The notes: generated by a model from the sequence alone, not told the origin. Counted from the stretch's first letter, positions 17,564-35,164 are shown. The stretch is 64,000 nt of DNA from Candidatus Omnitrophota bacterium (GCA_043805735.1 JAZDHS010000004.1:583-64582); one strand, 5' to 3'. Translations and numbers: made by a program.

Positions 17564-18841
17564 ATGATGGAGCTTAAGGGAAAAAAAGTAACTGTAGTCG
17601 GTTTAGGCAAAAGTGGAGTAGCCGCCTGTAATCTTCTGGTGAAAAAAGGGGCCCAGGTGTGCCTTACCGAGGCGCAGGATAACCCCAAGATTAGAGAAAC
17701 CCTTAAAGGCTTGGATCCGAGAGTGCAGGATATTGAAATAGGGGGGCACAGCGAACGATTTATCCAAGATCAGGATTTGGTGGTGACCTCACCCGGCGTG
17801 GCGCTTAAATCTTTACCGCTAAAGTGGGCTCAAGAAAAAGCAATCCCGGTTATCGCTGAGGTGGAATTAGCCTTTCGTTTTTGTCCGGCGCCGGTAGTGG
17901 CGATTAGCGGCACCAACGGTAAAACCACGGTCACTACTCTTACCGGAAGAGTCATCGAGGCGGCGGGGCGCAGGGCAATAGTCTGCGGCAATATCGGCAA
18001 TCCTTTTAGCGGCGAAGTGCAGCGGATTGGCCCTGAGGATTTAGTGGTGCTGGAAATCAGCTCCTTTCAGCTTGAAACTATTGCGAGTTTCCGGCCTAAA
18101 GTAGCGGCGATTTTAAATGTCACCGCCGACCATCTGGACCGGCACGCTGATTTTAATGAGTATGTTCAAGCGAAATGCCGCATTTTTATGAATCAGACCG
18201 CCGATGATTGGGCGGTATTTAGAGAAGACAATGATGCGCGGTTTTCCTTTTCACGTAAGACGAAAGCAAAAGTGCGTTATTATACGCGCACTATTTCCCA
18301 CGACGAAAGAGTAAAGGGCTTCAATGACAATTTTCTGGCCGTAATGGCGATTACCGCGGCGTTGGGTATTGACGAGCGGGTGGCGGTAGAGACCTGCGCC
18401 AATTTTAAAGGGATTGAGCACCGCTTGGAAGAAGTGGAGCAGATCCACGGGGTCACCTTTATTAACGATTCCAAAGGTACCAATGTCGATTCGACCCTCT
18501 GGGCGCTTGATGTAGTCAAACAACCGATAATTTTGATTGCCGGGGGAAGGGATAAGGATAGTGATTTTACTTTGATTCGAGACGTAATGCAAAAACGTGT
18601 TGTGGCGATGGTCTTGCTGGGCGAGGCTAAGGATAAGATGTTGCGGGCCTTCTCCGATATCGTGCCGACGCACACTGCGGCGACGTTAGCCGAGGCGGTC
18701 GAGTGCGCCTTTCGTATCGCCCAACCCGGATATTCGGTCTTATTTTCTCCGATGTGCGCAAGTTTTGATATGTTTGCCAATTACATTGAACGAGGAAACA
18801 TCTTTAAAGGGCTAGTGCGCCAGTTATCCCAACGGTCATAA
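17564..18841 (+). CDS. murD: UDP-N-acetylmuramoylalanine--D-glutamate ligase
   Basis: N-terminal Rossmann fold (VVGLGKSG) and Mur ligase P-loop GTNGKTT. Confidence 0.95.
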   Translation: MMELKGKKVTVVGLGKSGVAACNLLVKKGAQVCLTEAQDNPKIRETLKGLDPRVQDIEIGGHSERFIQDQDLVVTSPGVALKSLPLKWAQEKAIPVIAEVELAFRFCPAPVVAISGTNGKTTVTTLTGRVIEAAGRRAIVCGNIGNPFSGEVQRIGPEDLVVLEISSFQLETIASFRPKVAAILNVTADHLDRHADFNEYVQAKCRIFMNQTADDWAVFREDNDARFSFSRKTKAKVRYYTRTISHDERVKGFNDNFLAVMAITAALGIDERVAVETCANFKGIEHRLEEVEQIHGVTFINDSKGTNVDSTLWALDVVKQPIILIAGGRDKDSDFTLIRDVMQKRVVAMVLLGEAKDKMLRAFSDIVPTHTAATLAEAVECAFRIAQPGYSVLFSPMCASFDMFANYIERGNIFKGLVRQLSQRS

Positions 18842-18857
18842 CCTCTCTCGATAATTT

Positions 18858-19961
18858 ATGCGCCGAATAAGAATTTCTATTTTTATGATTGTGGTTACGC
18901 TCTTATGTATCGGAGTGGTGATGGTCTACAGTTCCAGCGCCATGTTTTCCTATGACCGCTACCGTTCGACCACTTTTTTTCTCAGCCATCATCTGTTGCA
19001 TCTGCTCATTGGTATGGTGCTTGCCGCTTTCGTCATGAGTATTGATTTGCTGCTTTTGCGGCGTTGGATTAAACCGCTGTTTATCTTTTCGGTGTTTTTA
19101 CTGTTTATTGTCTTTATTCCTGCCGTTGGCAAGACGGTAGGCGGCGCGCGGCGTTGGATAAAAATCGGCAGTTTTGCTTTTCAGCCGAGCGAATTGGTCC
19201 GCTGGACCACCGTTTTATTTCTTGCCGATGCCTTAGCCCAAAAAGTAAAAGAAAATATGCATCAGCTACGCGATTTTTTTGGGCTTTTGGCCATCAGTGG
19301 TGGCGTGTCGGCGCTGATACTAATCCAACCGGATTTGGGTGGGGCGCTTTCGGTAGCGGTGGTCAGTATGGTGTTGTTTTTTGTGGTCGGGATGAACATG
19401 CGGCATATCCTGGCGATGTTGTTGGCGTGTTTGCCAGTGCTTTATTTCGCAATTTTTCTTGTCCCCTACCGTAGGAAAAGGATTTTTGCTTTTCTTAATC
19501 CCTGGGCCGATGCGCGCGGGATCGGTTTTCAAATGGTCCAATCCTATCTGGCCTTAGGCCTGGGTGGAATTTTTGGCGTGGGTTTAGGGCAGAGCAAGCA
19601 GAAGCTGTTTTATCTTCCGGCCGCGCATACCGATTTTATTTTCTCCATTATCGGTGAAGAACTAGGCCTGATCGGCACTATCGCGATTATTGTGCTATTC
19701 ATGCTTTTTTTCTGGCAGGGTATCCGCATTGCCTTGCGTTGCGCGGATAGTTTTATTCAACTGCTCAGTTTTGGAATAGTGGCCACTATTGTCTTCTCAA
19801 CGTTAGTGCATATTGCGGTCGTCTGCGGGGCCGTGCCCACCAAGGGTTTGCCTCTACCCTTTATTAGCTACGGCGGGTCAGCCTTGGTTTTTAATATGGC
19901 GGCAGTGGGGTTATTGTTAAATATTTCCCGGGACCGTTATTGCGGGGGAGAGGTAAAATGA
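18858..19961 (+). CDS. ftsW: Peptidoglycan glycosyltransferase FtsW (SEDS)
   Basis: 10-TM SEDS protein with conserved FQPSE and DFIFS motifs, between murD and murG. Confidence 0.9.
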   Translation: MRRIRISIFMIVVTLLCIGVVMVYSSSAMFSYDRYRSTTFFLSHHLLHLLIGMVLAAFVMSIDLLLLRRWIKPLFIFSVFLLFIVFIPAVGKTVGGARRWIKIGSFAFQPSELVRWTTVLFLADALAQKVKENMHQLRDFFGLLAISGGVSALILIQPDLGGALSVAVVSMVLFFVVGMNMRHILAMLLACLPVLYFAIFLVPYRRKRIFAFLNPWADARGIGFQMVQSYLALGLGGIFGVGLGQSKQKLFYLPAAHTDFIFSIIGEELGLIGTIAIIVLFMLFFWQGIRIALRCADSFIQLLSFGIVATIVFSTLVHIAVVCGAVPTKGLPLPFISYGGSALVFNMAAVGLLLNISRDRYCGGEVK

Positions 19962-21079
19962 GGGTTTTGATTGCCTGCGGGGGTACCGCCGGGCATATAT
20001 TTCCCGGAGCGGCTTTGGCCGAGGAGCTAAAAAAATATAATGAGCATTCGCATATCGTGCTTGTTGTTTCCGGGCGCGCTCGCGATAAAGAATATCTCGA
20101 GGCGGCAAAATTTTTTTTAAAAGGTGTTGCGCTTGAACATATTATTTCCGCGCCTTTACCCTATACCTTTTCCTGGAAATTAATCCCTTTTGGCTTTAAA
20201 TTACTGGCGGCGCTTACTCAGTCGTTAGTCATTGTGCTGCGCCATCGGCCTTATGTTGTTGTTGGATTTGGCGGCTATATTTCGTTTGCGCCGGTGTGTA
20301 TTGCCCGGATCTTAAGAATTCCGACGCTGATTCATGAGCAAAATCTTATTCCCGGAAGGGCGAATCATTACTTAACCCGCTGGGTGAAAAAAATAGCTAC
20401 CTCTTTCGAGGAGACTAAGCGTTATTTCTCCGCAGCGCAGCTGGAGAATAAAATTGTCCACACCGGGCTGCCACTGCGCCGTGATTTTGTGTTAACCATG
20501 GATAGCGCCGGGCTGCGCCATAGCCCGCAAGATAAGGAAAAATGTACTATTCTTGTGGTCGGAGGCAGCCAGGGCGCTCAGGCCATTAATGCCCTGGTGC
20601 TGGAGAGCATCAGTAAAATGAGCCGGGAGCAATTAGCGAAGATCCGGGTAATTCATCTTACCGGAAAGTCCGACTATCGCCTGGTTAAAAACCAGTATGA
20701 TAAATTGGCGCTGGAGCATTTGGTTTATGATTTTTTTGAAGATATGCCCAGCGTCTACCGCATTGCCGATTTAATTATCGGCCGTTCCGGCGCTAGCACT
20801 ATTTTTGAGGCCGCCTGTTTTGGGCTACCCTGTATTTTAATTCCCTATCCGCACGGGACACTCCATCAGAAGGAGAATGCCCTGTTTTTACAGCGCCGCG
20901 GCGCGGCCTTAATGCTTGATGAAGGCACCGCCCGGGCGCAGGACTTACAAAAAATGATCTTGGAACTTATTGAAAACCCGGATGCGCGTCATGCGCTCTC
21001 CAAAAGTATCAGTTCGTTAAGGGTGCCCAACGCGCGCAAGAATCTTATCGACCTGGTGTATTCTTTACGTAAGGAATAG
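19958..21079 (+). CDS. murG: UDP-GlcNAc--lipid I N-acetylglucosaminyltransferase
   Basis: GGTAGH motif near the N-terminus. RBS GGAGAGG precedes ATG 19958. The listed ATG at 19940 lies inside ftsW. Confidence 0.9.
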   Translation: MRVLIACGGTAGHIFPGAALAEELKKYNEHSHIVLVVSGRARDKEYLEAAKFFLKGVALEHIISAPLPYTFSWKLIPFGFKLLAALTQSLVIVLRHRPYVVVGFGGYISFAPVCIARILRIPTLIHEQNLIPGRANHYLTRWVKKIATSFEETKRYFSAAQLENKIVHTGLPLRRDFVLTMDSAGLRHSPQDKEKCTILVVGGSQGAQAINALVLESISKMSREQLAKIRVIHLTGKSDYRLVKNQYDKLALEHLVYDFFEDMPSVYRIADLIIGRSGASTIFEAACFGLPCILIPYPHGTLHQKENALFLQRRGAALMLDEGTARAQDLQKMILELIENPDARHALSKSISSLRVPNARKNLIDLVYSLRKE

Positions 21080-21082
21080 ACG

Positions 21083-22462
21083 GTGTTTAGCAATCAAAAA
21101 AAAGTACATTTAATGGGAATTGGCGGAATTGGGATGAGCGGAATCGCGCAAATTCTTTTAGCCCAAGGTTGCCGGGTGAGCGGCTGTGATGTCAAGGCCT
21201 CCAGCTTAACGGAAAAGCTGCAACAGCTGGGAGCGAATATTGTTATCGGCCATGCGCCGGACCATCTTGATGATGTCGAAGTGCTGGTTTATAGTTCGGC
21301 CATCGCCAAAGACAATCCGGAGCTCGTTGGGGCGTATGCGCGTAACCTCGTGGTGTTATGGCGAGCCCAGGCGCTGGCGCTTTTAGCCAATCAAAAAAAG
21401 ACCATTTCCGTTACCGGGGCTCACGGCAAAACTACCACCTCTTCGATGATTGCCCATATCTTGGCTAAGTGCAATCTTAAACCGACGATTTGCGTCGGGG
21501 GTGAGCTCTTCAGCTTAAACGGTAATGCCTTCCGCGGCGAAAGCAATTATTTTGTCTTGGAGGCCGATGAAAGCGACGGTTCTTTTCTGCATCTAGCCCC
21601 CTTATATTCAGTGGTGACGAATATTGACCGCGAACATTTGGATTATTACCGGGATTTAGAGCACATTTGCGCTACCTTTCGCGCCTTTTTGAGTAATACC
21701 AGAAAAGAAGGCGCAATTTTCTTTTGCCAGGATGATCCGATGTTGTCAAAAGTAGTGAGTTCTCTTGGTATTACTGCGCTGGGCTATGGATTTTCTGCGG
21801 ATGCCGCCGTTACCGCCCGCGATATCGTGGTCGAAAGTGGGCGAAGCCGCTTTACCTTTTTTGAACGCGAAAAAGCTCTTGGTGAAGTAACTTTAGAAAT
21901 TCCCGGCCGGCATAATATCTCCAACGCCCTGGCGGCAATCGCGGTAGGTTTGAAAATTGGTTTGGATTTTTCGGCTATTTGCCAAGCACTTACTTCTTTT
22001 AAAGGCGTAAGACGGCGCATGGAATTGAAGCTTCGCGAAAAAGGTATTTTGGTGTTTGAAGATTACGCCCATCACCCCACGGAAATCAAAGTGACCTTGG
22101 AGGCCTTAAAGACTTTTGGGCCGAAAAGGATACTGGCTGTATTTCAGCCACACCGCTACAGCCGGACCAAATTTTTGTTGCCTGAATTTGGCCGCTGCTT
22201 TGCCGGTGTCGACCAGCTCATTGTCACCGATATTTATGCCGCCAGCGAAACGCCTATTGCGGGAATAAGCGGCCGCTGCGTTTGCCAGGAAGCGGAAAAA
22301 GCGAAGGTACGGGAAGTCTTTTTTCTGCCGAAGCAAGAAATCGTTGCCCACCTTTTAGGACAACTGCGCCCGGGAGATCTCGTAGCCATTATGGGGGCAG
22401 GGGACATAGGAAACCTTTCCAATGTATTGGCTGAAGCGGTTAAAAAGTCGGATCAACTTTAA
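21083..22462 (+). CDS. murC: UDP-N-acetylmuramate--L-alanine ligase
   Basis: MGIGGIGMSG Rossmann N-terminus and Mur ligase P-loop GAHGKTTT. Confidence 0.95.
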   Translation: MFSNQKKVHLMGIGGIGMSGIAQILLAQGCRVSGCDVKASSLTEKLQQLGANIVIGHAPDHLDDVEVLVYSSAIAKDNPELVGAYARNLVVLWRAQALALLANQKKTISVTGAHGKTTTSSMIAHILAKCNLKPTICVGGELFSLNGNAFRGESNYFVLEADESDGSFLHLAPLYSVVTNIDREHLDYYRDLEHICATFRAFLSNTRKEGAIFFCQDDPMLSKVVSSLGITALGYGFSADAAVTARDIVVESGRSRFTFFEREKALGEVTLEIPGRHNISNALAAIAVGLKIGLDFSAICQALTSFKGVRRRMELKLREKGILVFEDYAHHPTEIKVTLEALKTFGPKRILAVFQPHRYSRTKFLLPEFGRCFAGVDQLIVTDIYAASETPIAGISGRCVCQEAEKAKVREVFFLPKQEIVAHLLGQLRPGDLVAIMGAGDIGNLSNVLAEAVKKSDQL

Positions 22463-23342
22463 AGAACCTCTAAGCCGCCACACTACCTTAGGCGTGGGTG
22501 GCCGGGTGAAAGTCTGGATTGAGCCGAAGAATATCGCAGAATTAAAAGTGGTGATTTGCCACTGTGCCCGCGGGCAGATTCCTTTTATGGTCATCGGAAA
22601 AGGCTCTAACCTGCTTTTCCACGACCAGGGGTTTAAGGGCGTAGCGATTGCGCTGCGCGCGCCGGAGTTTACCGAGCTCAAGATTAAAGGCAGCCGAGCC
22701 TATTGCGGGGCCGGGGTAGCGGTGGCCGCGCTAATGCGTCAGGCCCAAAAACAGGGACTGGGCGGATTAGAATTTTTAGCCGGTATTCCGGCAACAGTTG
22801 CCGGGGCAATAGTGATGAATGCCGGCACGCCGCTAAAAGGCATTGGCGATCTGGTAGAGAGCGTGCAGGTTATGGATAAAAAAGGCCGCCTAAAAATACT
22901 GCTCAAAAATAAGTTGCATTTTCGCTATCGTTACTCTAACCTGGAGCGCTATATCATTGTCGGTGTAGTTCTGCGGTTGCTTAAAAAAGATCCCGGGGTG
23001 ATCCAAGAAGAAATCAGCGCATTTTTGAAAAAGAAAAGACATGCCCAGGATCTTCAGACCAAAAGCGCGGGCTGTATTTTCAAAAATCCCCACCATACGC
23101 TCTCGGCCGGGGCGATGATTGAATCCTGTGGTTTGAAAGGGATGCGTAAAGGCGGGGCGGAAATATCTTCTATCCATGCTAATTATATTATTAACCGTGA
23201 CCAAGCTCAGGCCGAAGATATTCTATCATTAATAAGAATGGCCCAAAGAGAAGTGCGGAAAAAATTTAAGGTTAGTCTGGAGCCGGAAATCAAGATAATC
23301 GGGCGCCGCGGCGTCCAAACAGGAAAAGGCGACAAAAAGTGA
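22422..23342 (+). CDS. murB: UDP-N-acetylenolpyruvoylglucosamine reductase
   Basis: FAD-binding PCMH domain (HTTLGVGG, GKGSNLL) plus MurB C-domain. The start overlaps murC by ~40 nt and could be later. Confidence 0.85.
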   Translation: MYWLKRLKSRINFKEPLSRHTTLGVGGRVKVWIEPKNIAELKVVICHCARGQIPFMVIGKGSNLLFHDQGFKGVAIALRAPEFTELKIKGSRAYCGAGVAVAALMRQAQKQGLGGLEFLAGIPATVAGAIVMNAGTPLKGIGDLVESVQVMDKKGRLKILLKNKLHFRYRYSNLERYIIVGVVLRLLKKDPGVIQEEISAFLKKKRHAQDLQTKSAGCIFKNPHHTLSAGAMIESCGLKGMRKGGAEISSIHANYIINRDQAQAEDILSLIRMAQREVRKKFKVSLEPEIKIIGRRGVQTGKGDKK

Positions 23343-24250
23343 ACAAGAAACTCAGGCGTGTAGGCGTGCTGATGGGTGGCCCCTCAAGCGAACGTGACAT
23401 TTCGCTCAAATCCGGCTGGGCCGTATATCGCGCGCTCAAAGAGAAAGGCGTGGCGGTAGTAGCGATTGATGTTCGTGCCAACGCTAAAGCGCAAGTAAGA
23501 AAGGCCGATATCTCTTGCGCCTTTGTTGCCCTGCACGGTAAATTTGGCGAAGACGGCACGATCCAAAAGATGCTGGAGTCACTCGAAATACCCTACACGG
23601 GTTCAGGGGTGATTGCCAGCTACCTTTGCTTAGATAAGGTGGCCTCGCGGCGCATTTTTCAGCATTACTATATCCCAGTTCCTGAATTTGAGGTGTTGCA
23701 TCGCCGCGCAAAAAAATCCCGGCAAAATATATCCTTGGCCTTTCCAGTAGTGTTAAAACCATCAAACCAGGGCTCGAGCATTGGCGTAACCTGTGTAAGC
23801 AAACGGGCGCAGTTCAGAAAAGCGTTAGATTTGGCTTTTGAATATGACGATACGGTTATTGTAGAAAAATATCTTCCCGGGCGGGAAATTACTGTCGGTG
23901 TCTTAGACGATACGCCGCTACCGGTGGTGGAAATAATTCCCAAAGAGAAGTTTTTTAATTTCCAAGCGAAATACGAAAAAGGTAAAACCAAATATGTTGT
24001 ACCGGCTAAGCTGTCTACGGGGCAATTTAAAGAAGCGCAGCGGCTTGGTCTTTTAGCGCACCAGGTTCTGGGTTGCCGCGGTTTTTCCCGTGCGGATATA
24101 ATTTTAAGTAGAGGCACGCCCTTCGTGTTAGAAGTAAACAGTATCCCGGGACTCACCGAAACCTCTCTTTTGCCAATGGCCGCTGGTGCCATCGGAATTT
24201 CTTTTCCCAATCTCTGTTTAAAAATTTTGCATTCCGCAGACAAAAGTTAA
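23339..24250 (+). CDS. ddl: D-alanine--D-alanine ligase
   Basis: ATP-grasp fold with Ddl motifs (HGKFGEDG, EVNSIPG). Confidence 0.9.
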   Translation: MNKKLRRVGVLMGGPSSERDISLKSGWAVYRALKEKGVAVVAIDVRANAKAQVRKADISCAFVALHGKFGEDGTIQKMLESLEIPYTGSGVIASYLCLDKVASRRIFQHYYIPVPEFEVLHRRAKKSRQNISLAFPVVLKPSNQGSSIGVTCVSKRAQFRKALDLAFEYDDTVIVEKYLPGREITVGVLDDTPLPVVEIIPKEKFFNFQAKYEKGKTKYVVPAKLSTGQFKEAQRLGLLAHQVLGCRGFSRADIILSRGTPFVLEVNSIPGLTETSLLPMAAGAIGISFPNLCLKILHSADKS

Positions 24251-24261
24251 AAGGAAGGACA

Positions 24262-25092
24262 ATGCCGGATTACAAAAAGTTAATAAAAATGAGGATGAGG
24301 AGAAGAGCGCCTGGCCGTAGAGTCCGGCCAGGTTCAGCGCTTAATCCACGCACGAAAATAATCTTTGCCGGGGTGATGACCTTGGCCTTGTGTATAGCCG
24401 TGGCAGTATATGTCGCGCTGGGTGTGCGCTCTTTTTTATTGGATTCGCCCGTCTTTACCATCGATACACTTTATGTCATGAGTGCCGATGAACAGCCGAT
24501 CGTAAATGCCGAAGAGATCATCAACGTCGAGCGCTTAGGTGAAAACAGACATTTGTTGCGCTATGATGTCAAGAAGCTGATGCGCGATATCCAGGCTAGG
24601 CACCCCGAATTGGCAACGGTAGTGGTGCGTAAACAGTTTCCCAGTGCCTTAATTATCACCATAAGAAAACGTATTCCCGTGGTCATTGTCGGTAATAATC
24701 TCTGCGTGGTCGATAAAGAAGGTTTTGCCCTGCCGTTCAATCAGGAATACGCGCTGTTGCCTAAAATTAGCGGAATTCATTCCGCGCAGGTTCCGCTGGC
24801 CGCCAAGAGTGGTTCGTTACGCCTAGAAAAGGCGCTGGCGCTTCTTATCGCCTTGGAGGAAGCGGGGATTTATCCTGCACGCAAGGTATCGCGGATTGAT
24901 GTGGGTGACTTTTCCCAGGTGTTGTTTTATTTCGACGATAACACCGAAGTAAAAATGGGGGGAGATGAATTCGCGCAAAAAGCGAAAGTCTTGAAAGGTA
25001 TTTTACAGCGGCTAAAAAAAGAAAAAGATTTGACGCCCAAATATATTGACATGCGTTTTGGTAATCCCGCTGTGCTACCGCAGGAAAAATAA
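24262..25092 (+). CDS. ftsQ: Cell division protein FtsQ/DivIB
   Basis: Single TM segment followed by POTRA and FtsQ beta-domain-like sequence, between ddl and ftsA. Confidence 0.8.
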   Translation: MPDYKKLIKMRMRRRAPGRRVRPGSALNPRTKIIFAGVMTLALCIAVAVYVALGVRSFLLDSPVFTIDTLYVMSADEQPIVNAEEIINVERLGENRHLLRYDVKKLMRDIQARHPELATVVVRKQFPSALIITIRKRIPVVIVGNNLCVVDKEGFALPFNQEYALLPKISGIHSAQVPLAAKSGSLRLEKALALLIALEEAGIYPARKVSRIDVGDFSQVLFYFDDNTEVKMGGDEFAQKAKVLKGILQRLKKEKDLTPKYIDMRFGNPAVLPQEK

Positions 25093-25096
25093 ACCG

Positions 25097-26308
25097 ATGA
25101 TTAAAAACCGCCGGATCTGCGCCTTGGATGTGGGCACGCATAAGATTGCCGCGCTCTGCGCGAAAATCGACCGCTGGGGCATAGTTCAGGTTGAAGGTTT
25201 CCAGAAAATTTCCACCCAAGGGATTAATGCCGGACAAATTACCGATGCCGGAAAGCTCAGTGCCGCTATCGATGAGGTAATGCGGCAGTTGTGTAAGATG
25301 TCCGGCATCAGGGTGCGCCGGGTGCTGGTCAATTTTGACTGCCCGGACTTAAAGATGCATTTACAGCAAGGAGTCCTGGATTCCCGCCAAGACTGGCGAG
25401 CGAAAAAATTTTACCTGCGCCGGATGCTTAATACATATGTTTGTTCAACTTTGCCTAAACAGCGCAAACTGGTGCGCGTGGATTTTAAACAACGCGCCAT
25501 CATCGATGCCCAAACAGAGGAACCGGTAGTTGATATTGTGATGCTTAGTTCCGCCGCTAGTTCATTTCATGCCTTTGTGCGTTGTTTGGCGCGCGCCCAC
25601 CTGGCTATAGAGGCAGTAGTACCATCAGGGTATGCGCAGATAGTCAGTCTTTTAAAAAGGCACAGGTCGGCCTCGGCCAAGAAGAATATCCTCATTGATT
25701 TTGGCGCGGGGCTAACCAAAATTATTGCTTATGAAAATGGATTAGTGAAAAATATTGTCTATATTTCCACCGGCGCGCAAAATATTACCGCTGGGATCAA
25801 AGATGCCTTAGGGGTTTCTCTCGATGTTGCGGAAAGGCTCAAGCTGGCCTACGGCCGGCTCAATGTCATGCGTAATATTAATATCCAAAGAATCGTGGTC
25901 AACGACCAGGCGCATTATAAAACGGTAGAAACTCAGGCGCTCTACGCCGCTATTGCCGCAAAAATTGAGGAGCTTTTGGAGCCTACCCGCAGGGCGCTTC
26001 AACAGAGCCTCACCGACGGAGTTAATCCGGTAGAAGAAATTATTGTCACCGGAGGCGGTGCCCTGATGGAAGGATTCCTGGAACGCGCGGAAGCGGTCTT
26101 GGGTTTACCGGTAAAGATGGGTTTCTTGTATGGCGTCAACGAAAGCCGCCTGCAATCCCAAAGCGCCCTTTATGCGACGCTGGTAGGTTTGGTCCGCTAT
26201 GGGGCCTTATTAAGAGACCGCAAAGATAAACTATTGGTCCGGGCCGGGGTCGGGGTAGTCGACGATATGATCAGCCGGGCCAGCAAGCTCTACTACGAGT
26301 ATTTCTAA
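25097..26308 (+). CDS. ftsA: Cell division protein FtsA
   Basis: Actin-like ATPase motifs (ALDVGT, IDFGAG, VTGGGA). ATG 25097 follows the ftsQ stop. The listed ORF start at 25046 lies inside ftsQ. Confidence 0.9.
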   Translation: MIKNRRICALDVGTHKIAALCAKIDRWGIVQVEGFQKISTQGINAGQITDAGKLSAAIDEVMRQLCKMSGIRVRRVLVNFDCPDLKMHLQQGVLDSRQDWRAKKFYLRRMLNTYVCSTLPKQRKLVRVDFKQRAIIDAQTEEPVVDIVMLSSAASSFHAFVRCLARAHLAIEAVVPSGYAQIVSLLKRHRSASAKKNILIDFGAGLTKIIAYENGLVKNIVYISTGAQNITAGIKDALGVSLDVAERLKLAYGRLNVMRNINIQRIVVNDQAHYKTVETQALYAAIAAKIEELLEPTRRALQQSLTDGVNPVEEIIVTGGGALMEGFLERAEAVLGLPVKMGFLYGVNESRLQSQSALYATLVGLVRYGALLRDRKDKLLVRAGVGVVDDMISRASKLYYEYF

Positions 26309-26419
26309 CTCCTTCAACCGTAGCCATAAGGGACTGTCCCCTCCCAATTCTACACCCAATCAGGGGGACTGTCCCATTACACAGATAAGCGTTGCCTTGG
26401 TAGTTAAGCCAAAGCGTCG

Positions 26420-26448
26420 TTGACAGAGAAATGCTTTTGTGCTACATT
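26420..26448 (+). promoter_or_regulatory. Sigma70-like promoter (TTGACA-17-TACATT) for proC
   Basis: -35 TTGACA at about 26420-26425, 17-nt spacer, -10 TACATT. Confidence 0.45.
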
Positions 26449-26478
26449 ATACTGATGTTTTTACGAGAAAGTCAGGTG

Positions 26479-27285
26479 ATGGCAGTGAAAATTGGTATTA
26501 TTGGCTGTGGTAATATGGGCAGCGCGCTGTTACGCGGAATTTTAGCCAAACGCTTGGCCCCTAACCAAGCCATTTTCTGTTTTGATAAAGACCGCAATAA
26601 GCTTAAAGGCGTGCGCGCCCAATTTTCGATCACCGTCTGTGCTTCTATTAGCGAGCTGGTGCGTAAAAGTGAGGTAATTATAGTTGCGGTCAAGCCTGGT
26701 GATGTTGCGCTGGTACTTGCGGATTTCACCGGTTCGCTGGAGGGTAAACTGATTGTTTCCGTCTGCGCCGGAATACCGACGCGGATGTATGAACGTGTCT
26801 TGGGTAAAGTAGCGGTAGCCCGGGTAATGCCGAATCTGCCGGCGCAAATTGGCCAAGGCATTTCCGCGTTATCAATGGGTAGATTCACCGGGGCCAGGCA
26901 AAAGAAGACGGCGCTTTTACTTTTATCCGCCGTTGGCGAGGTAGTGGAAGTAAAGGAACATTTAATTAATGCCGTAACCGCGATTAGCGGTTCCGGTCCG
27001 GCCTTTTTCTTTTATTTAGCTGAACTAATGATTGCGACGGCGCGGCAATTAGGCCTTGATGAAACTACGGCGAAAAGGTTAGTGCTTAAGACAGCGCTCG
27101 GAAGCGCATTGCTGCTTGAACAAACAACTCAAAGACCGCAGGTATTACGCCAACTCGTTACTTCCAAAGAAGGCACGACTGAGGCGGCTTTCAAGGTGCT
27201 CACGAAAAAAAAGATTCAGAGTATTTTCACCCTGGCAATTAAGGCTGCGGCTAAAAGAGCTAAAGGCCTGGAAAAAACCAGGTGA
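26479..27285 (+). CDS. proC: Pyrroline-5-carboxylate reductase
   Basis: N-terminal NADP Rossmann fold (IGIIGCGNMG) and P5CR C-terminal dimerisation domain. The listed ORF start at 26431 runs through the promoter. ATG 26479 is preferred. Confidence 0.9.
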   Translation: MAVKIGIIGCGNMGSALLRGILAKRLAPNQAIFCFDKDRNKLKGVRAQFSITVCASISELVRKSEVIIVAVKPGDVALVLADFTGSLEGKLIVSVCAGIPTRMYERVLGKVAVARVMPNLPAQIGQGISALSMGRFTGARQKKTALLLLSAVGEVVEVKEHLINAVTAISGSGPAFFFYLAELMIATARQLGLDETTAKRLVLKTALGSALLLEQTTQRPQVLRQLVTSKEGTTEAAFKVLTKKKIQSIFTLAIKAAAKRAKGLEKTR

Positions 27286-27506
27286 TGAGATATTCTATCC
27301 GCTTGCATCCCGGGGCATCTCAAAATAAACTACTCAAAGATCCTGTAAGGCAGTCTATCGATGTCTATGTTACCAAAAAGCCATATCATGGCCAGGCGAA
27401 CCAGGCGCTGAAAGAATTATTAGCTGAAGAATTTGATGTAGCGCCTTCGAGAATAAAAATTGTGCAGGGTGAAAAATCGCGGTTTAAAATAGTCGAGATA
27501 GAATAG
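27282..27506 (+). CDS. DUF167 (YggU/UPF0235) family protein
   Basis: 74 aa with the pattern typical of YggU-like proteins (HPGASQNKL...IDVYVTKKPYHGQANQAL). Confidence 0.75.
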   Translation: MMRYSIRLHPGASQNKLLKDPVRQSIDVYVTKKPYHGQANQALKELLAEEFDVAPSRIKIVQGEKSRFKIVEIE

Positions 27507-27517: not shown

Positions 27518-28375
27518 ATGGCGCGTATCGGTATCATTGGCGGCAGCGGCTTGTATGACCTTGAGGGCATGGTGGTGAAAGAAAGATTAGCCTTGGATAC
27601 TCCTTTTGGCCGGCCTTCGGCTGAATTTACTATCGGGACCTTGGAAGGAAAAGAAATCGTGTTTTTACCGCGGCACGGAAAGAGCCACACGATTTCTCCG
27701 AGTGAAATTAATTTTCCGGCCAATATTTATGGTCTGAAAAAACTGGGTGTGGAACGGATTATTTCCGTCTGCGCGGTGGGCAGCTTAAAAAAGGAAATTA
27801 AACCGTGTGATTTCTTAATTCCCGACCAATTTGTCGACTGGACTAATCAGGCCCGCAAGACGACCTTTTTTGAAAAAGGGATTGTTGCACATGTTGCTTT
27901 CGCCGATCCGGTCTGCCCAACCGTTAGCCAGGCTTTGCTCAAGGCCGCCAAGGCGCTGAAGGTTAGGGCCCACGCTAAAGGAACATATTTAAATATGGAA
28001 GGGCCGGCATTTTCCACACGCGCCGAGTCGCACCTTTACCGCAGTTGGGGTATGGATATCATCGGTATGACCAATATGGCCGAAGCCAGGCTCACCCGCG
28101 AGGCTGAAATATGCTATGCCGCTTTGGCGATGATTACCGATTACGACTGCTGGTATGCCAGCGAAGAGAAGGTGAGCGTAGATTTAATTTTGGCAAATTT
28201 TAAAAAAAGCGTGGAAAACGCCAAAAAATTACTCAGAAAAGCGATTGTCGCCATGCCCACCAAAAGAGACTGTCTCTGCTGCGGGGCCTTGCAGGGCGCA
28301 ATTGTCACCGCGCCTGAGGCTATTTCTCCGGAAATAAAAAAGAAGCTGGATATTATCATTGGTAAATATGTATGA
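27518..28375 (+). CDS. mtnP: S-methyl-5'-thioadenosine phosphorylase / purine nucleoside phosphorylase
   Basis: PNP/MTAP family with GIIGGSGL at the N-terminus and the phosphate and ribose site motifs. Confidence 0.9.
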   Translation: MARIGIIGGSGLYDLEGMVVKERLALDTPFGRPSAEFTIGTLEGKEIVFLPRHGKSHTISPSEINFPANIYGLKKLGVERIISVCAVGSLKKEIKPCDFLIPDQFVDWTNQARKTTFFEKGIVAHVAFADPVCPTVSQALLKAAKALKVRAHAKGTYLNMEGPAFSTRAESHLYRSWGMDIIGMTNMAEARLTREAEICYAALAMITDYDCWYASEEKVSVDLILANFKKSVENAKKLLRKAIVAMPTKRDCLCCGALQGAIVTAPEAISPEIKKKLDIIIGKYV

Positions 28376-28499
28376 ACCCCGCCCTTCCTAAACAAGTAAT
28401 GCATAACAAGTAAAAGCACAGCAAAAAGGTTTAAGTAATGCAGATAAAATTAAGCAGAAGTAATAGTTATATTGGCAATGCCGGGAAAGGAAGGGCGGG

Positions 28500-31334
28500 G
28501 TGAATTATAAAGAAACGCTCAGCCTTCCCAAGACCACTTTCCCGATGCAGGCCAAGCTCAAAGAGCTGGAACCGCGAATGCTCTCTTTCTGGCAGGCCGA
28601 GGATATCTACGCGGCGATGCGCCAACAAGCAAAAGGCCGGCCGAAATATATCTTGCACGACGGGCCGCCCTATGCCAACGGCGATATTCATATCGGCCAT
28701 GCCCTGAATAAAATTCTTAAAGATTTTGTCGTAAAATATAAGGCCTTGCGTGGTTTTGATGTGCCGTTTGTGCCGGGTTGGGATTGCCACGGCCTTCCGG
28801 TGGAACATCAGCTGTTTAAGGAATTAGGGATTACCAAACATCAGATTGACCGGGTCCAATTTAGAAAAAAGGCGAGAGACTTCGCGCTGCGATTCGTAAA
28901 TATTCAGCGTGAGCAGTTCAAAAGGTTAGGACTGTTTGCTGAGTGGGAACACCCTTATTTAACCTTGGACCCGGCCTATGAAGCGGAGATTCTACGCGCC
29001 TTCGCCCGACTGGTTAAGGACGGCTATATTTATCATGGCCTCAAGCCGATTAATTGGTGTATGGGCTGTGAGACGGCATTGGCGGAGGCAGAGGTGGAAT
29101 ATGAGGATCGCCGCTCGCCTTCCATTTTTGTCAAGTTTAAACTCCTCGGTGCGGAAAAAATTAGTATTTTGCGTCTTCCTCAGGAGCAGGAGACCTACTT
29201 TTTAATCTGGACAACTACGCCCTGGACGCTGTTGGCCAATGTGGCCATTGCCGTTCATCCCGAGTTTGAGTATAGCCTGGTAAGAGTGCGTACTAAAACC
29301 GGTGAGAGCGAGGCCTATCTTCTGGCCAGCGCGCGGGTAGCGGCAGTAATGCGCGAAACCGGTATCAGCGAATATGAGACGCTAGCTAGCATTAAGGGGG
29401 CAAAACTGGAAGGAATTCTCACTGGCCATCCTTTCGTTGAACGCCAGGCCCAAGTAGTGCTCGCCGACTATGTCTCCAGCGAGGAAGGTACCGGATGTGT
29501 CCATACGGCGCCGGGACACGGTGAAGAAGATTATCTGACCGGATTAAAATATAAGCTTCCGGTGATTATGCCGGTCGATGAAAAAGGAAAATTTGACCGC
29601 ACGGTGGGTGAGTTTTCCGGAATGGATGTCTTAAAGGCCAATGATGCGATTATTCAAAAAATGAAAACCAACGGCATGCTGCTTTACGCCGGCGATATTC
29701 TCCATTCTTATCCGCACTGTTGGAGATGCAAATCTCCGTTGATTACCCGCAGTACTCGGCAGTGGTTTATTAATGTGGAGCACAAGGGGTTAAGAAAAAG
29801 AGCCCTGGAAGTGATTGACCAGGTGCAATGGATTCCCGAATCCGCTAAAAGCCGGATTTCCGGAATGGTCCGGTCGCGTCCGGATTGGTGCCTTTCCCGG
29901 CAAAGATTTTGGGGTGTGCCGATCCCCGTATTTTACTGTAAGAACTGCGGTAAAGAAATTGTCGAGGCCCAGCTGATCGAAAAGGCCGCCGCGATTGTGG
30001 CCAAGGAAGGAGCGGATGCCTGGTTTATCCGCTCAGCCGAAGAATTAGCCGGAGAAAAGCTGCGTTGTCCGGAGTGTAAAAATGAACAGTGGATTAAGGA
30101 ACAGGATATTATCGATGTCTGGTTTGACTCCGGAGTCAGCCATCAGGCCGTGCTCTTGACCAATAAAGATTTGGGTTTTCCCGCTTCGCTTTACTTGGAA
30201 GGCAGCGACCAGCATCGCGGCTGGTTTCAAACCGCGCTCTTAACCGCGATTCCTTTAACCAATCAAGCGCCTTATCAGACGGTGCTGACACATGGCTTTA
30301 CGGTGGATGGGGAAGGCAAGAAAATGTCCAAGTCCCGTGGGAATGTCATTTCTCCGCAGGAAACCATTGAGCAATACGGGGCGGAAATTTTACGCTTGTG
30401 GGTCGCCTCCTGCGACTATAGCGATGATGTGCGGATTTCTCCGCAAATTCTGGCCAGCATCGCCGATGCCTACCGCAAGATTCGCAATACGATCCGTTTT
30501 CTTTTGGGTAACCTCACTGACTTTACGCCCGATAAAAAGGTGGTTTACGAGGAGCTTTGGGAAATTGACCAGTGGGCCCTATCCTCGTTAGCCTCATTAT
30601 TAAAAGAAATTACCGCTGACTACGAAAATTTTCTCTATTACAAAATGTTTCGCCGGCTCTATAATTTTTGCACCTGTGAAATGTCTTCCTTTTATCTTGA
30701 TATTTTAAAGGACCGCCTCTATACTATGGGCAGGACTTCGCCAGCCCGGCGTTCAGCGCAGACGGCAATGGCGGAGATACTGCTGGCCCTGACCAAGATT
30801 ATGGCCCCGGTGCTTACCTTTACGGCCGAGGAGGTCTGGGCGAATATGGGCGCGATTGCCGGGGAAAAACAACCGCGGTCAATTCTATTAGGCAGTTGGC
30901 CTGATGCTGAAGCCCGCTGGTCTAATCCGGGACTGGAAAGTAAATTTGAACGTCTGGAGAAAATTCGCGCCGCAGTACTTAAGGTTATTGAGACCGAGCG
31001 GGAAAAGGGAATTATCGGCAGCTCTCTGGAGGCACGGGTATCTTTATATGTGCAGGATGATGCGCTTTATCAATTTTTAAAAGAAAACTTAAGGCTGTGG
31101 GAATCTATTTTTATTGTTTCGGCGGTTTCTTTGGAAAAAGTAACTGCCTTTTCTGAAGGCGTCACTGTGAATAACGTTGAGGCTCCTAATTTAGGGGTTA
31201 AGGTGGCGAAAATTGAATACGCTAAGTGCGAACGCTGCTGGAATTACCGCGATTCCGTAGGTAAAATTTCGGGATATCCGCAATTGTGCGAACGATGCGT
31301 TAAAGCGATCGATGAGGAGGAAAAAACAAAATGA
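28500..31334 (+). CDS. ileS: Isoleucine--tRNA ligase
   Basis: 944 aa class I aaRS with HIGH (HIGHAL) and KMSKS (KMSKSRGN), editing domain, and a C-terminal Zn-binding CxxC...CxxC. GTG start. Confidence 0.95.
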   Translation: MNYKETLSLPKTTFPMQAKLKELEPRMLSFWQAEDIYAAMRQQAKGRPKYILHDGPPYANGDIHIGHALNKILKDFVVKYKALRGFDVPFVPGWDCHGLPVEHQLFKELGITKHQIDRVQFRKKARDFALRFVNIQREQFKRLGLFAEWEHPYLTLDPAYEAEILRAFARLVKDGYIYHGLKPINWCMGCETALAEAEVEYEDRRSPSIFVKFKLLGAEKISILRLPQEQETYFLIWTTTPWTLLANVAIAVHPEFEYSLVRVRTKTGESEAYLLASARVAAVMRETGISEYETLASIKGAKLEGILTGHPFVERQAQVVLADYVSSEEGTGCVHTAPGHGEEDYLTGLKYKLPVIMPVDEKGKFDRTVGEFSGMDVLKANDAIIQKMKTNGMLLYAGDILHSYPHCWRCKSPLITRSTRQWFINVEHKGLRKRALEVIDQVQWIPESAKSRISGMVRSRPDWCLSRQRFWGVPIPVFYCKNCGKEIVEAQLIEKAAAIVAKEGADAWFIRSAEELAGEKLRCPECKNEQWIKEQDIIDVWFDSGVSHQAVLLTNKDLGFPASLYLEGSDQHRGWFQTALLTAIPLTNQAPYQTVLTHGFTVDGEGKKMSKSRGNVISPQETIEQYGAEILRLWVASCDYSDDVRISPQILASIADAYRKIRNTIRFLLGNLTDFTPDKKVVYEELWEIDQWALSSLASLLKEITADYENFLYYKMFRRLYNFCTCEMSSFYLDILKDRLYTMGRTSPARRSAQTAMAEILLALTKIMAPVLTFTAEEVWANMGAIAGEKQPRSILLGSWPDAEARWSNPGLESKFERLEKIRAAVLKVIETEREKGIIGSSLEARVSLYVQDDALYQFLKENLRLWESIFIVSAVSLEKVTAFSEGVTVNNVEAPNLGVKVAKIEYAKCERCWNYRDSVGKISGYPQLCERCVKAIDEEEKTK

Positions 31335-31720
31335 ACAAAAAGGCCCTGGAGAAGTACAAGAAACTACTGTTAAAAATGCGTGAAGAGATTGTCGAAGAAA
31401 TGGATTCGATTACCAAAGATACGCTCAACAAATCACAAAGAGAGGCTTCCGGAGACCTCTCGGGGTACGCCTTTCATATGGCCGATGCCGCTACCGATAA
31501 TTACGATCGCGAATTCTCGCTCAACCTGGCCTCGGATAACCAGAAGATTGTCTATGCTATTGACGAGGCGCTGGCAAGAATTAAAGAGAAGACTTATGGC
31601 CTTTGCCTGGAATGCGGCGCCGAAATTACCCGCAAACGCCTGCAGGCCGTACCGCATACGACACTCTGCATCGCTTGTCAGCGCAGTGAAGAGGTCAAGA
31701 AAAAACAGAAGGCCGAATAA
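31331..31720 (+). CDS. DksA/TraR-family C4 zinc-finger protein
   Basis: 129 aa ending in the DksA/TraR zinc finger CLECGAEI...CIACQ. Occupies the ribF-like slot in the ileS-lspA operon. Confidence 0.8.
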   Translation: MNKKALEKYKKLLLKMREEIVEEMDSITKDTLNKSQREASGDLSGYAFHMADAATDNYDREFSLNLASDNQKIVYAIDEALARIKEKTYGLCLECGAEITRKRLQAVPHTTLCIACQRSEEVKKKQKAE

Positions 31721-31735
31721 ACTCACCAGGCGCGT

Positions 31736-32194
31736 ATGGTTGTTTTTGTTATTGCCGGCGTTATAGTTGCTCTGGATCAGCTGACCAAGTATATGGTTTG
31801 GCATATACTGGCTCCGGGTGAGTCCTTACCGATAGTAAATCACGTCTTTCATCTTAGCCTCGTTTTGAATCGCGGTTTTGCCTTTGGCTTATTTGCTAAA
31901 GCGCACCCGATCTTTATTTGGGCTCTCTATGGCGCGGTGATTATTCTGGCCGCGGCTGTTTTGTGCCGTCAGGGCGGCCTTTTCCCGAAGAAGTCGACGC
32001 GTATTTTTTTAACCCTGATCGCGGCGGGAGCGCTCGGTAATTTGATTGACCGGATACGCTTTAGCGCGGTAATTGATTTTTTGGATTTTCGGATTTGGCC
32101 AGTCTTTAATCTTGCTGATTCGGCAATTACTGTGGGAGTGAGCCTTTTATTATGGCAATTGTTTATCCACCAGCAAACCCAACCTAAACAATGA
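31736..32194 (+). CDS. lspA: Lipoprotein signal peptidase II
   Basis: Four-TM protein with conserved LspA motifs (NxGxAFG-like NRGFAFGL, FNLAD). Confidence 0.9.
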   Translation: MVVFVIAGVIVALDQLTKYMVWHILAPGESLPIVNHVFHLSLVLNRGFAFGLFAKAHPIFIWALYGAVIILAAAVLCRQGGLFPKKSTRIFLTLIAAGALGNLIDRIRFSAVIDFLDFRIWPVFNLADSAITVGVSLLLWQLFIHQQTQPKQ

Positions 32195-32958
32195 AGCCGA
32201 TACTGTTACAATTGGGGCCGATTAGCGTCTTTGCATATGGGTTAATGGTTTCCTGCGCTTTTCTCATTGGGACATATCTGGCTCAGCGCGAAGCCACGCG
32301 CCAAAACCTACCGGCGCAAAAGATTATTGATCTTTCTTTGTGCATCGTGATTAGCGGTGTAGTTGGCGCGCGACTGTTATACGTTTTGCAGAATATCCAG
32401 TTTTATCGTGTCTATCCACTGCGTATCGTAATGTTACATGAAGGGGGCTTAAGTTTCTTTGGCGGTTTTTTTGTCGCGCTCGCCGCTACCCTGATTTTCC
32501 TGCGGATCCAGCGCTTGCCCGCCTGGACAGTGTTGGATATCTTTGTGCCTTATTTGGCGTTAGGCCAGGCCATCGGCCGCATCGGTTGCCTGCTCAATGG
32601 CTGTTGCTTCGGAAAAGTCACGACTGCTTTTGGGGCGATTTGTTTCCCGGGCGAAACGATTTGCCGTTATCCGATACAGGTTTATAATTCTTTGCTTTTG
32701 TTGGCGCTTTATATAGTGCTTAGGTACCGCCAAAAGCGCGGCCAAACCTTTCCTGGGCAGCTCTTCCTTTTATATTGTATTCTTTATAGCACAATCCGTT
32801 TTATCAGCGAATTTTTCCGCGGTGACCATACTGCGGTAATTGGCTGGCTTACGCTGCACCAAATATTTAGCCTTATGGTCTTTACGATGGCGGGAGTATG
32901 GTTATGGAAAAAACAGAACAATTTTGTTTTACGGTTACCGATGAAGACCAAGGCCTAA
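32191..32958 (+). CDS. lgt: Prolipoprotein diacylglyceryl transferase
   Basis: Polytopic membrane protein with the Lgt signature (GARLLYVL, HEGGLSFFGG). Confidence 0.9.
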   Translation: MKPILLQLGPISVFAYGLMVSCAFLIGTYLAQREATRQNLPAQKIIDLSLCIVISGVVGARLLYVLQNIQFYRVYPLRIVMLHEGGLSFFGGFFVALAATLIFLRIQRLPAWTVLDIFVPYLALGQAIGRIGCLLNGCCFGKVTTAFGAICFPGETICRYPIQVYNSLLLLALYIVLRYRQKRGQTFPGQLFLLYCILYSTIRFISEFFRGDHTAVIGWLTLHQIFSLMVFTMAGVWLWKKQNNFVLRLPMKTKA

Positions 32959-33815
32959 GACTCGATTGCTATCTGCAGAAAAAAATTACGCTTGAGCTTT
33001 CACGCTCCCGCCTGCAGTCGCTGATTAAAGCGGCTAAGGTAACGCTCAACTCCCAAGCGGTCAAGCCCGGTCATAAAGTCAGAAGCGGCGATATTATCAA
33101 TGTCGACATCCCGCCGGACGCACCGGTCCAGGCCCAAGCGGAAAATATTCCCATCGATCTGGTGTTTGAGGATGAGGATATCCTGGTGGTAAATAAGCCG
33201 GCCGGAATGGTCACGCATCCGGGGGTGGGAAATAATACGCACACCCTGGTCAACGCCTTGCTTCATTATGGTTGTACGCTTTCAAGCGTAAATGGGCCAC
33301 TGCGGCCGGGGATTGTCCACCGTTTAGATAAAGATACAAGCGGCCTGATGGTAATCGCTAAAAACGACCGCGCGCATCATCGCCTCAGCCGGCAGTTTCA
33401 AAAGCACAACGTAGAGAGGCGATATATTGCGATCGTAAAAGGCAAGGTTGAACACGACGAAGGAGTTATTGACGCTCCTTTAGCCCGGGATCCGTTACAC
33501 CGCAAGCAATTCGTGGTCGGTTTACACAACAGTAGGGATGCGCTGACCCGTTTCAAAGTAGTCAAAAGGTACAGCCAACTTAGCCTGGTAGAATTAACAC
33601 CCTATACCGGCAGAACACACCAACTGCGGGTACACCTGAAGTTCTTGGGCCATCCCATTCTCGGTGATGAGCGCTATGGTAAGAGGGGAGAATTCAGCCG
33701 GATGGCCCTTCATGCTACGGGGTTGGGATTTCGCCACCCCCTAACCAAGGAAATGGTTCGCTTTAGCTCGGAAATTCCCGCCGATTTTACCCGCTATCTC
33801 GATTCTCTGAAGTAA
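32898..33815 (+). CDS. rluD: 23S rRNA pseudouridine synthase, RluA/RluD family
   Basis: S4 domain followed by the RluA-family catalytic motif HRLDKDTSGLMV. Start could be 32898 or 32904. Confidence 0.9.
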   Translation: MVMEKTEQFCFTVTDEDQGLRLDCYLQKKITLELSRSRLQSLIKAAKVTLNSQAVKPGHKVRSGDIINVDIPPDAPVQAQAENIPIDLVFEDEDILVVNKPAGMVTHPGVGNNTHTLVNALLHYGCTLSSVNGPLRPGIVHRLDKDTSGLMVIAKNDRAHHRLSRQFQKHNVERRYIAIVKGKVEHDEGVIDAPLARDPLHRKQFVVGLHNSRDALTRFKVVKRYSQLSLVELTPYTGRTHQLRVHLKFLGHPILGDERYGKRGEFSRMALHATGLGFRHPLTKEMVRFSSEIPADFTRYLDSLK

Positions 33816-33862: not shown

Positions 33863-35164
33863 ATGTCAACTGTTACTATAGAGCCGAAAAGACTGCAGGG
33901 CGAAGTAACCCCACCAGCTGACAAATCCATCTCCCATCGCGCGATTATCCTTGGTGCTTTGGCCCAGGGAAAAACCGTAATCAAAAACCTCTCACTGTGC
34001 GATGATTGTACCCGTACTTTAGAAGCCTTTAAGCAAATGGGCATCGCGATTGTCCAGGAAAAAGGCTATTTTTACATTGCGGGTGAGGGTTTGGCCGGCC
34101 TGCGAAAACCTCCACTAGGATTGTACTTAGGAAATTCCGGGACCTCGATGCGCCTGATCCTTGGTGTGTTAGCGGGCCAGGATTTTCGCTGCGAACTTTC
34201 CGGAGATGAATCGCTTTCCCGCCGGCCGATGAAGCGCGTCACCGAACCCTTAACGCAGATGGGGGCAAAAATTAGCGGTAAAGACGAGGCCAACTTTGCG
34301 CCTCTAACCATTGAAGGCGGTAAGCTAAAACCGATTACTTATGAAACCCCGATGGCCAGTGCCCAGGTAAAATCGGCTATTCTTTTAGCCGGGCTTTATG
34401 CTGAAGGCCAAACCAAGGTTGCGTTTCAGCAGCATTCAAGAGACCATAGCGAAAGAATGCTCAAAAAATTTGGCGCCCACCTCCAAACTAAAGGACATTC
34501 AGTAACTATAGAGGGAAGGGCTATCTTGGCCGCTCAAGAGATCGAAGTTCCTGGGGATATTTCCTCAGCCAGTTTCTTTCTGGCCGGGGCCAGTATTAAT
34601 CCTGGTTCACAAGTGCGTGTTCGTGCGGTCGGGCTTAACCCGACACGCACCGCCTTTTTAGAAACTTTAGGCAAAATGGGCGCTCAGGTAAAAGTGACTT
34701 ACCTAAATACCCAGATGAGTAAGAGCAATTATGCTGATGAAGCGGTTGGTGAAGTGGTGGCGGCAGCGAGTGCGCTCAAGGGCATTCGTATTGAACCCCA
34801 AGAGGTGCCTTTACTGATCGATGAATTACCGATTTTTATGGTCGTCGCCACACAGGCTGATGGTGAGACGGTGATTCGCGGGGCCGGTGAATTAAGGGTT
34901 AAGGAAACCGATCGTATTCAGTCTATGGTGGTCAACCTCTCCCGATTAGGGGCGCAGATTGTTAATGAGGGCAATGATATTATTATTCGCGGCCCGACCA
35001 AACTTAAAGGAGCAGAGGTAGAAAGCTTCCTGGATCACCGCACGGCAATGAGCATGGCGATTGCCGGCTTAGTGGCTCAAGGGCCAACCACGATCAAGGA
35101 TGTTGAATGTGTCGATATTTCTTTCCCCGGCTTCTTTAACCTCCTGGCCCAGCTTTCATGTTAA
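33863..35164 (+). CDS. aroA: 3-phosphoshikimate 1-carboxyvinyltransferase (EPSP synthase)
   Basis: 433 aa with conserved LGNSGTSMR and KxSHR (DKSISHRA) motifs. Confidence 0.95.
   Translation: MSTVTIEPKRLQGEVTPPADKSISHRAIILGALAQGKTVIKNLSLCDDCTRTLEAFKQMGIAIVQEKGYFYIAGEGLAGLRKPPLGLYLGNSGTSMRLILGVLAGQDFRCELSGDESLSRRPMKRVTEPLTQMGAKISGKDEANFAPLTIEGGKLKPITYETPMASAQVKSAILLAGLYAEGQTKVAFQQHSRDHSERMLKKFGAHLQTKGHSVTIEGRAILAAQEIEVPGDISSASFFLAGASINPGSQVRVRAVGLNPTRTAFLETLGKMGAQVKVTYLNTQMSKSNYADEAVGEVVAAASALKGIRIEPQEVPLLIDELPIFMVVATQADGETVIRGAGELRVKETDRIQSMVVNLSRLGAQIVNEGNDIIIRGPTKLKGAEVESFLDHRTAMSMAIAGLVAQGPTTIKDVECVDISFPGFFNLLAQLSC

Follow-up and report, generated by a model that had tools for sequence, protein, structure and literature searches.

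FtsZ is near-universal in walled bacteria, and how constriction proceeds in the exceptions is a long-standing question. To our knowledge, work on FtsZ-less constriction has so far been confined to Chlamydiae and Planctomycetes, both of which are also without FtsA. Chlamydiota resemble the lineage described here in that they are PVC-related, lack FtsZ, synthesize peptidoglycan and have kept FtsW/FtsI-type synthases and MreB, with division relying on a peptidoglycan ring organised by MreB, RodZ and FtsK. They differ in that FtsA has been lost as well and the dcw cluster is fragmented, whereas the dcw cluster characterized here is contiguous and FtsA has been kept. Planctomycetota, for example Planctopirus limnophila, likewise represent a PVC lineage without FtsZ. 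In their case, ftsA and ftsB have been lost, most mur genes are missing in several orders and the remaining dcw genes are non-essential, whereas Omnitrophota keep the full set.

The absence of ftsZ from Omnitrophota has already been published, and the DNA analysed here shows no new phenomenon in this respect; the novelty implied by the original prediction, made from the sequence alone, was thus too high. Pende 2021 (PMC8178401) described FtsZ as absent in Planctomycetes, Omnitrophica and Chlamydiae and FtsA as absent only in the other two phyla. According to the supplementary table of that study, four out of five Omnitrophica genomes lack FtsZ, three of these four carry FtsA, and OLB16 is the one Omnitrophica exception to FtsZ absence. 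Seymour 2023 (PMC10066038), covering 421 genomes, reported in its supplementary text no ftsZ homologue in Omnitrophota except for one case which is 89% identical to an archaeal protein and points to contamination or recent transfer. The same supplementary text lists ftsY (SRP receptor) and ribosomal protein L30 as absent lineage-wide in Omnitrophota, with the ftsY absence stated to be unique among PVC. Three PVC reviews (Rivas-Marin 2016, 2017 and 2025) count Omnitrophica as FtsZ-containing or dcw-conserving. These statements are based largely on 'Omnitrophica bacterium OLB16', and the 2016 review itself gives OLB16 as the only Omnitrophica member with FtsZ detected. Genome-wide absence of ftsZ is based on the two surveys, which cover mostly draft MAGs, and we hold with high confidence that the Omnitrophota lineage is FtsZ-less.

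Division genes and the search for FtsZ

The window, by which we mean the whole 64-kb stretch of Candidatus Omnitrophota DNA analysed here (positions 1-64000), carries a complete, uninterrupted and co-directional dcw cluster from mraZ to ftsA at 10041-26308, as determined by Pfam and NCBIfam scans and ORF listing. Gene order is canonical and in one orientation (mraZ-rsmH-ftsL-ftsI-murE-murF-mraY-murD-ftsW-murG-murC-murB-ddl-ftsQ-ftsA), with ftsL assigned by position only. The cluster opens with mraZ (10041-10490; TIGR00242, 140.6 bits, above cut-off) and rsmH, also called mraW (10705-11595; TIGR00006, 327.9 bits). Between rsmH and the following ftsI, a position on which its assignment is based, lies a small ORF (11599-11874) for a putative FtsL-like bitopic protein of 91 aa. 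It has an N-terminal hydrophobic TM helix followed by a coiled-coil-like stretch and gave no HMM match in the Pfam and NCBIfam scans. The ftsI-type class B PBP gene (11915-13666; SpoVD/FtsI/PBP2 family models, E 1e-150 to 1e-87) is followed by murE, murF, mraY and murD (13644-18841; NCBIfam equivalogs above cut-off), by ftsW, murG, murC, murB and ddl (18858-24250; Pfam domains) and by ftsQ (24262-25092; POTRA_1 and FtsQ_DivIB_C domains). Adjoining ftsQ, the cluster closes on its 3' side with a divergent Omnitrophota-type ftsA (25097-26308), which encodes 403 aa ending in ...LYYEYF and was assigned via PF14450, TIGR01174, PDB profiles and an AF2 model. All of these genes lie on the plus strand. 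From mraZ to ftsA, the genes and their order are the same as in the E. coli and B. subtilis dcw clusters; the differences from these systems are that ftsZ is absent, that the R-x-x-E motif of FtsA is not conserved in the clade and that FtsA falls below the equivalog cut-off.

Downstream, beginning 7.5 kb after ftsA, an elongasome cluster comprises murA, mreB (35223-36305), mreC, a probable mreD assigned by position only, pbp2 (mrdA) and rodA (33863-40527, plus strand; Pfam). The window organism has therefore kept the full lipid II pathway, FtsQ, an FtsL-like protein, FtsW, FtsI and FtsA together with an adjacent MreBCD-PBP2-RodA set. The joint loss of FtsA that is typical of Chlamydiota and Planctomycetota is not seen, FtsA being present and conserved.

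Several further features of the window were recorded. All genes identified across it lie on the plus strand and GC skew is uniformly positive, with the dcw, mre/pbp2/rodA, murA and pilus genes forming one long co-directional block. Directly after rodA, at 40662-40744 on the plus strand, Rfam detected a c-di-GMP-I-GGC riboswitch (RF03167) with 69.5 bits, which exceeds the gathering threshold. On its 3' side lie a 140-aa ORF without Pfam match, a HAMP-GGDEF gene at 41127-42032 and a large cluster of type IV pilus genes (42100-55855) comprising a pilT-like gene, a gene for an MshEN-only protein, two pilB paralogues, pilC, pilins, pilM, pilO and a secretin gene. At the other end of the window, tRNA-Pro(CGG) at 107-184 overlaps the listed TTG start of a short-chain dehydrogenase ORF (136-954), and the real start of the latter therefore lies further downstream.

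Queried with the FtsZ proteins of E. coli and B. subtilis, tblastn found no FtsZ in the 64-kb window (best E 0.7), and Pfam detected no tubulin/FtsZ domain in the plus-strand ORFs scanned, which were all but two of those listed with 100 aa or more. The search was extended to 10 kb on either side of ftsA in relatives. Across all 14 loci with an FtsA ending in [ED]YF, namely the window and 13 fetched loci, one of them from the complete chromosome CP070837.1, tblastn returned zero FtsZ matches in a total of about 216 kb. Neither in the window nor at any of the 13 related loci does ftsZ lie directly 3' of ftsA. The expectation of a textbook-complete cluster from mraZ to ftsA that lacks ftsZ was thereby borne out, and the 14 loci together with the two surveys support one of the two alternatives offered by the original prediction, an FtsZ-less lineage which still keeps FtsA.

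The other reading offered there was that ftsZ has moved elsewhere, where it would be expressed from its own promoter and division would be canonical. This would be compatible with a search that covered 64 kb of one genome plus the surroundings of ftsA in relatives, and with the listing of Omnitrophica among FtsZ-containing phyla in some PVC reviews. Both genome surveys argue against it, since neither found an FtsZ homologue in Omnitrophota genomes that do contain FtsA, leaving aside the archaeal-like contaminant and OLB16. Further, the refuting case named in the original prediction, an ftsZ at some other site shared by the lineage, did not turn up in the sequence searched and runs counter to the surveys. 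We consider relocation very unlikely, and the properties of FtsA described below point in the same direction.

Other bacteria have divergent FtsZ-like proteins, such as the FtsZl families and kustd1438 of anammox bacteria. By analogy, a divergent protein of the tubulin/FtsZ superfamily, encoded elsewhere in the genome and scoring below standard HMM detection, might have replaced FtsZ, and the window does contain ORFs without Pfam match (for example 3995-4498, 40736-41158 and 51693-53377). [quoted passage not shown] True loss of ftsZ is the reading followed from here on.

The ftsA-proC junction and its relatives

The spacer between ftsA and proC (26309-26478) is, as had been predicted, about 170 nt long and contains palindromes and a promoter-like site. 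Two GGGACTGTCCC palindromes at 26330 and 26365 pair to yield a 12-bp G+C-rich stem (26330-26375, plus strand), a second hairpin is also present and the RNA fold of the spacer has a z of -2.25. Rfam gave no RNA family match in the spacer. The GGGACTGTCCC hairpin probably marks where the dcw transcription unit ends, as its 3' end or as a terminator. The same 11-nt palindrome pair also occurs right after ftsA in the relative L018 (1363-1390), whose FtsA is 23% identical. There, the pair is flanked by T-runs and resembles a bidirectional terminator, and a third copy is found elsewhere in the 4.7-kb contig (3388-3398). None of the other 19 loci contains the palindrome, which might represent a REP-like element or a terminator typical of the lineage.

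Downstream of the hairpins, a sigma-70-like candidate promoter for proC (TTGACA-17-TACATT, TG-extended; 26420-26448, plus strand) was assigned as a consensus match only. The proC gene encodes pyrroline-5-carboxylate reductase (26479-27285, plus strand; TIGR00112, 245.6 bits; P5CR_dimer and F420_oxidored domains) and likely starts at the ATG at 26479, since an ORF extended back to 26431 would run into the promoter-like site. It is followed on the same strand by yggU (DUF167; 27285-27503; PF02594, E 3.6e-19) and by genes for an mtnP-like (MTAP-type) phosphorylase, ileS, a dksA/traR-type zinc finger, lspA, lgt and rluD (27518-33815; Pfam). The order of this mtnP-ileS-dksA-lspA-lgt-rluD block is identical in eight relatives.

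An independent Logan assembly (L001, SRR27925880, 1.6 kb) matches window positions 24958-26619 at 99.8% identity. As it reproduces the ftsA-proC junction, the junction is not a mis-assembly. That the junction might be an assembly or binning artefact is one form of a more general objection, the other being that ftsA is a decaying relic; the artefact is countered by this second assembly and by the 13 other loci that reproduce the junction, and the relic is taken up with FtsA below.

Nine close relative loci (L002, L003, L005, L006, L010-L013 and L015) were obtained via context look-ups and an FtsA-profile search of genome contigs. Their FtsAs are 33-41% identical to the window protein, whose closest relatives, in this same identity range, come from MAGs labelled Omnitrophota or Omnitrophica. 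The closed chromosome CP070837.1 (1,553,238 bp), of which we found no mention in our literature search, is among the nine. All nine show ddl-ftsQ-ftsA followed by a minus-strand HAMP-GAF-HD gene. In seven of the nine, where the contig extends past this gene, proC comes next, followed by (yggU)-mtnP-ileS-dksA-lspA-lgt-rluD-murA. The sole difference between the window and these relatives is that the window has no HAMP-GAF-HD gene after ftsA. Remnants of that gene were not found in the window spacer 26309-26478, and the only similar sequence in the window is a 33%-identical paralogue at 62632-63996. The HAMP-GAF-HD (HD-GYP-like) protein has 473 aa and is 71-76% identical among the nine relatives, exceeding the conservation of FtsA. 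One MAG, SRP256446_co1_219, holds two different ftsQ-ftsA-HAMP-GAF-HD loci (L011, CAZPSS010000132.1, and L012, CAZPSS010000114.1), which would come either from two related populations that were binned together or from a duplication. Among these binchicken MAGs, several carry the record label 'uncultured Planctomycetia' yet have Omnitrophota-like synteny.

Many more distant FtsAs with the [ED]YF ending were recovered by the HMMER scan described below, and four of their loci extend the comparison. In L019 and L020, ftsA is followed by yggS (PLP-binding, Ala_racemase_N)-proC-(yggT)-mtnP...ileS-dksA-lspA-lgt-rluD...murA. L017 has the start of a yggS-like gene directly after ftsA, and L018 has a minus-strand PilZ gene at this position. 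At all three loci with a canonical FtsA (L007, L016 and the Firmicute L021), ftsZ lies immediately downstream of ftsA. Two candidates for an FtsZ-bearing sister lineage, taken from the best non-[ED]YF FtsA matches, were rejected: P0017 has ftsA-ftsZ, yet its lineage is not close, and P0080, also with ftsA-ftsZ, is a sporulating Firmicute.

The downstream neighbours yggS/proC/yggT-yggU ... ileS-dksA-lspA-rluD are kept at the ftsZ-less loci, and the block in the window recalls the Gram-positive region after ftsZ. In B. subtilis, we take the order after ftsZ to be ylmD-ylmE-sepF-ylmG...divIVA-ileS-ylyA-lspA-rluD, with yggS corresponding to ylmE and yggT to ylmG. Since ileS-ylyA-lspA-rluD and the yggS and yggT counterparts lie downstream of ftsZ in Gram-positives, excision of ftsZ in place is the simplest history of the locus. 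The order ileS-dksA/traR-lspA-(lgt)-rluD is kept across Omnitrophota (window 28500-33815; L003, L005, L013, L015 and L019), and its likeness to B. subtilis suggests a very old synteny 3' of the dcw cluster.

The Omnitrophota-type FtsA

The FtsA of the window has an identical NCBI entry, MFH1045433.1 ('MAG: cell division FtsA domain-containing protein'), which is encoded on a 101-kb contig of a Candidatus Omnitrophota bacterium. The window protein matched Pfam PF14450 with 67 bits, above the cut-off of 31.8, and PDB profiles of FtsA with E 1e-40. The match to TIGR01174 was full-length (7-368 / 2-371) and reached 156.5 bits, below the equivalog cut-off of 175.85. The claim that FtsA is intact holds insofar as the ORF is intact and conserved, with the qualification that the TIGR01174 score stays below cut-off and the NCBI name goes only as far as 'FtsA domain-containing protein'. 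An AF2 model (pLDDT 76) had FtsA structures as its best PDB matches (TM 0.72-0.75), followed by PilM at about 0.6 and MreB at about 0.5. In E. coli numbering, the nucleotide-binding residues D14/G16, D210/G212/T216 and G336/G337 are retained, and these motifs are conserved across the family. Subdomain 1C is more divergent, with no match to PF02491 (SHS2 1C) in the window protein and five out of seven conserved 1C positions changed. The model nevertheless has a beta-alpha-beta-beta insert at 86-153, and PF02491 is matched by the relatives P0009, P0013 and L017-L020.

At the C-terminus, a helix is predicted with low confidence at 378-402. The terminal L-Y-x-E-Y-F is invariant in the family and resembles the K-x-W-[FL]-x-x-[ED]-F-F ends of other FtsAs. 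We read it as a lineage-specific form of the aromatic-rich membrane-targeting helix. The idea that the [ED]YF tail represents a new interaction motif was rejected as the main reading, since the tail lines up with the aromatic-rich terminus typical of this helix in FtsA. A HMMER scan of 1.84 billion representatives was carried out with an FtsA profile and the top 181 representatives were compared, 79 of which end in [ED]YF. Judged by sequence, the Omnitrophota-type FtsA is a large clade characterized by this ending.

FtsA and FtsQ have diverged more rapidly than the proteins encoded around them. Among close relatives, the two proteins show 33-47% identity compared with 50-75% for the products of surrounding genes, and their dN/dS values are 0.37-0.39. 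For ftsA, dN/dS between two close relatives is 0.37 versus 0.15-0.29 for most neighbours, which indicates purifying selection that is looser than on most neighbouring genes. Fast evolution and the score below the NCBIfam cut-off would fit a pseudogene in the making that no longer has a role. However, all members have an intact ORF with invariant ATP and C-terminal helix motifs, dN/dS stays well under 1 and ftsA has held its place in the operon throughout a clade with FtsA identities of only 23-41%. Whether framed as a relic or as the artefact considered above, this objection is hardly credible and we regard it as the least probable of the alternatives. The intact ORF is better explained by a functional FtsA.

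Residues R300 and E303 of the FtsA subdomain 2B helix in E. coli, which we take to be part of the docking site for the FtsZ C-terminal peptide, reportedly contact this peptide. The corresponding R-x-x-E motif is present in 92 of 102 other FtsAs and in only 13 of 79 FtsAs of the [ED]YF type. By column, the arginine is found in 98/101 and the glutamate in 94/101 of the non-[ED]YF proteins, compared with 16/79 and 21/79, respectively, in the [ED]YF type. The window protein reads K-I-E-E at this position, i.e. K-x-x-E is kept. A salt bridge between TmFtsZ R344 and FtsA subdomain 2B has been described (PMC5256927). In these alignments, R-x-x-E is mostly lost at clade level and nearly invariant in the FtsAs of other bacteria. 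The loss is not specific to this site: out of 40 positions that canonical FtsAs conserve, 19 have changed in the window's tight family, with subdomain 1C being affected worst. Lacking a conserved FtsZ-tail-binding motif, this FtsA therefore most likely acts without FtsZ. The loss also speaks against relocation of ftsZ, the motif being nearly invariant elsewhere.

A possible role of FtsA in FtsZ-less constriction

We consider the following explanation, taken as a whole, highly probable. The phylum Candidatus Omnitrophota would have lost ftsZ, in line with the published surveys. As suggested by the gene order and the lineage-wide junction observed here, ftsZ would have been excised in place from an ancestral arrangement ...ddl-ftsQ-ftsA-[ftsZ]-yggS-proC-yggT/yggU-...-ileS-dksA-lspA-rluD. 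The dcw operon would have remained otherwise intact, now ending at ftsA with a hairpin, and proC would have come to be transcribed from a separate promoter. In agreement with the features observed in the protein, FtsA would have been retained as a functional membrane-binding actin-like ATPase without the conserved FtsZ-tail-binding motif. For the division mechanism itself, we infer that FtsA, possibly as MreB-like filaments, and/or MreB would organise the septal peptidoglycan synthase FtsQ/L-FtsW-FtsI and bring about its activation. In this model, which has the best support, constriction of these very small cells would then be achieved by FtsZ-independent septal peptidoglycan synthesis.

FtsA would here serve as a membrane scaffold or activator by analogy with the MreB double filaments guiding RodA-PBP2, and MreB may contribute as in Chlamydiae. 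Double filaments formed by FtsA have been compared with MreB 'rudders' guiding FtsWI (PMC7613929, Nierhaus et al. 2022), and the MreB-RodA-PBP2 elongasome, where a membrane-bound actin-like filament guides a SEDS-bPBP synthase, provides the model for FtsA-FtsW-FtsI without FtsZ. The analogy has its bounds as elongasome MreB belongs to a different actin subfamily, with subdomain 1B in MreB versus 1C in FtsA, and polymerisation and curvature sensing are hypothetical for Omnitrophota FtsA. A more specific version, which we put forward only tentatively, is an 'FtsA-only' divisome of Omnitrophota where the ATPase and the membrane helix have been kept, the FtsZ-docking motif has been lost and FtsA may be the primary cytoplasmic scaffold or activator for FtsQ/L-FtsW-FtsI.

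[quoted passage not shown] Together, these three features make the role of FtsA without FtsZ a concrete question. If it proves true, an FtsA-only divisome would turn the phylum into a natural experiment that separates the FtsZ-independent functions of FtsA from tethering.
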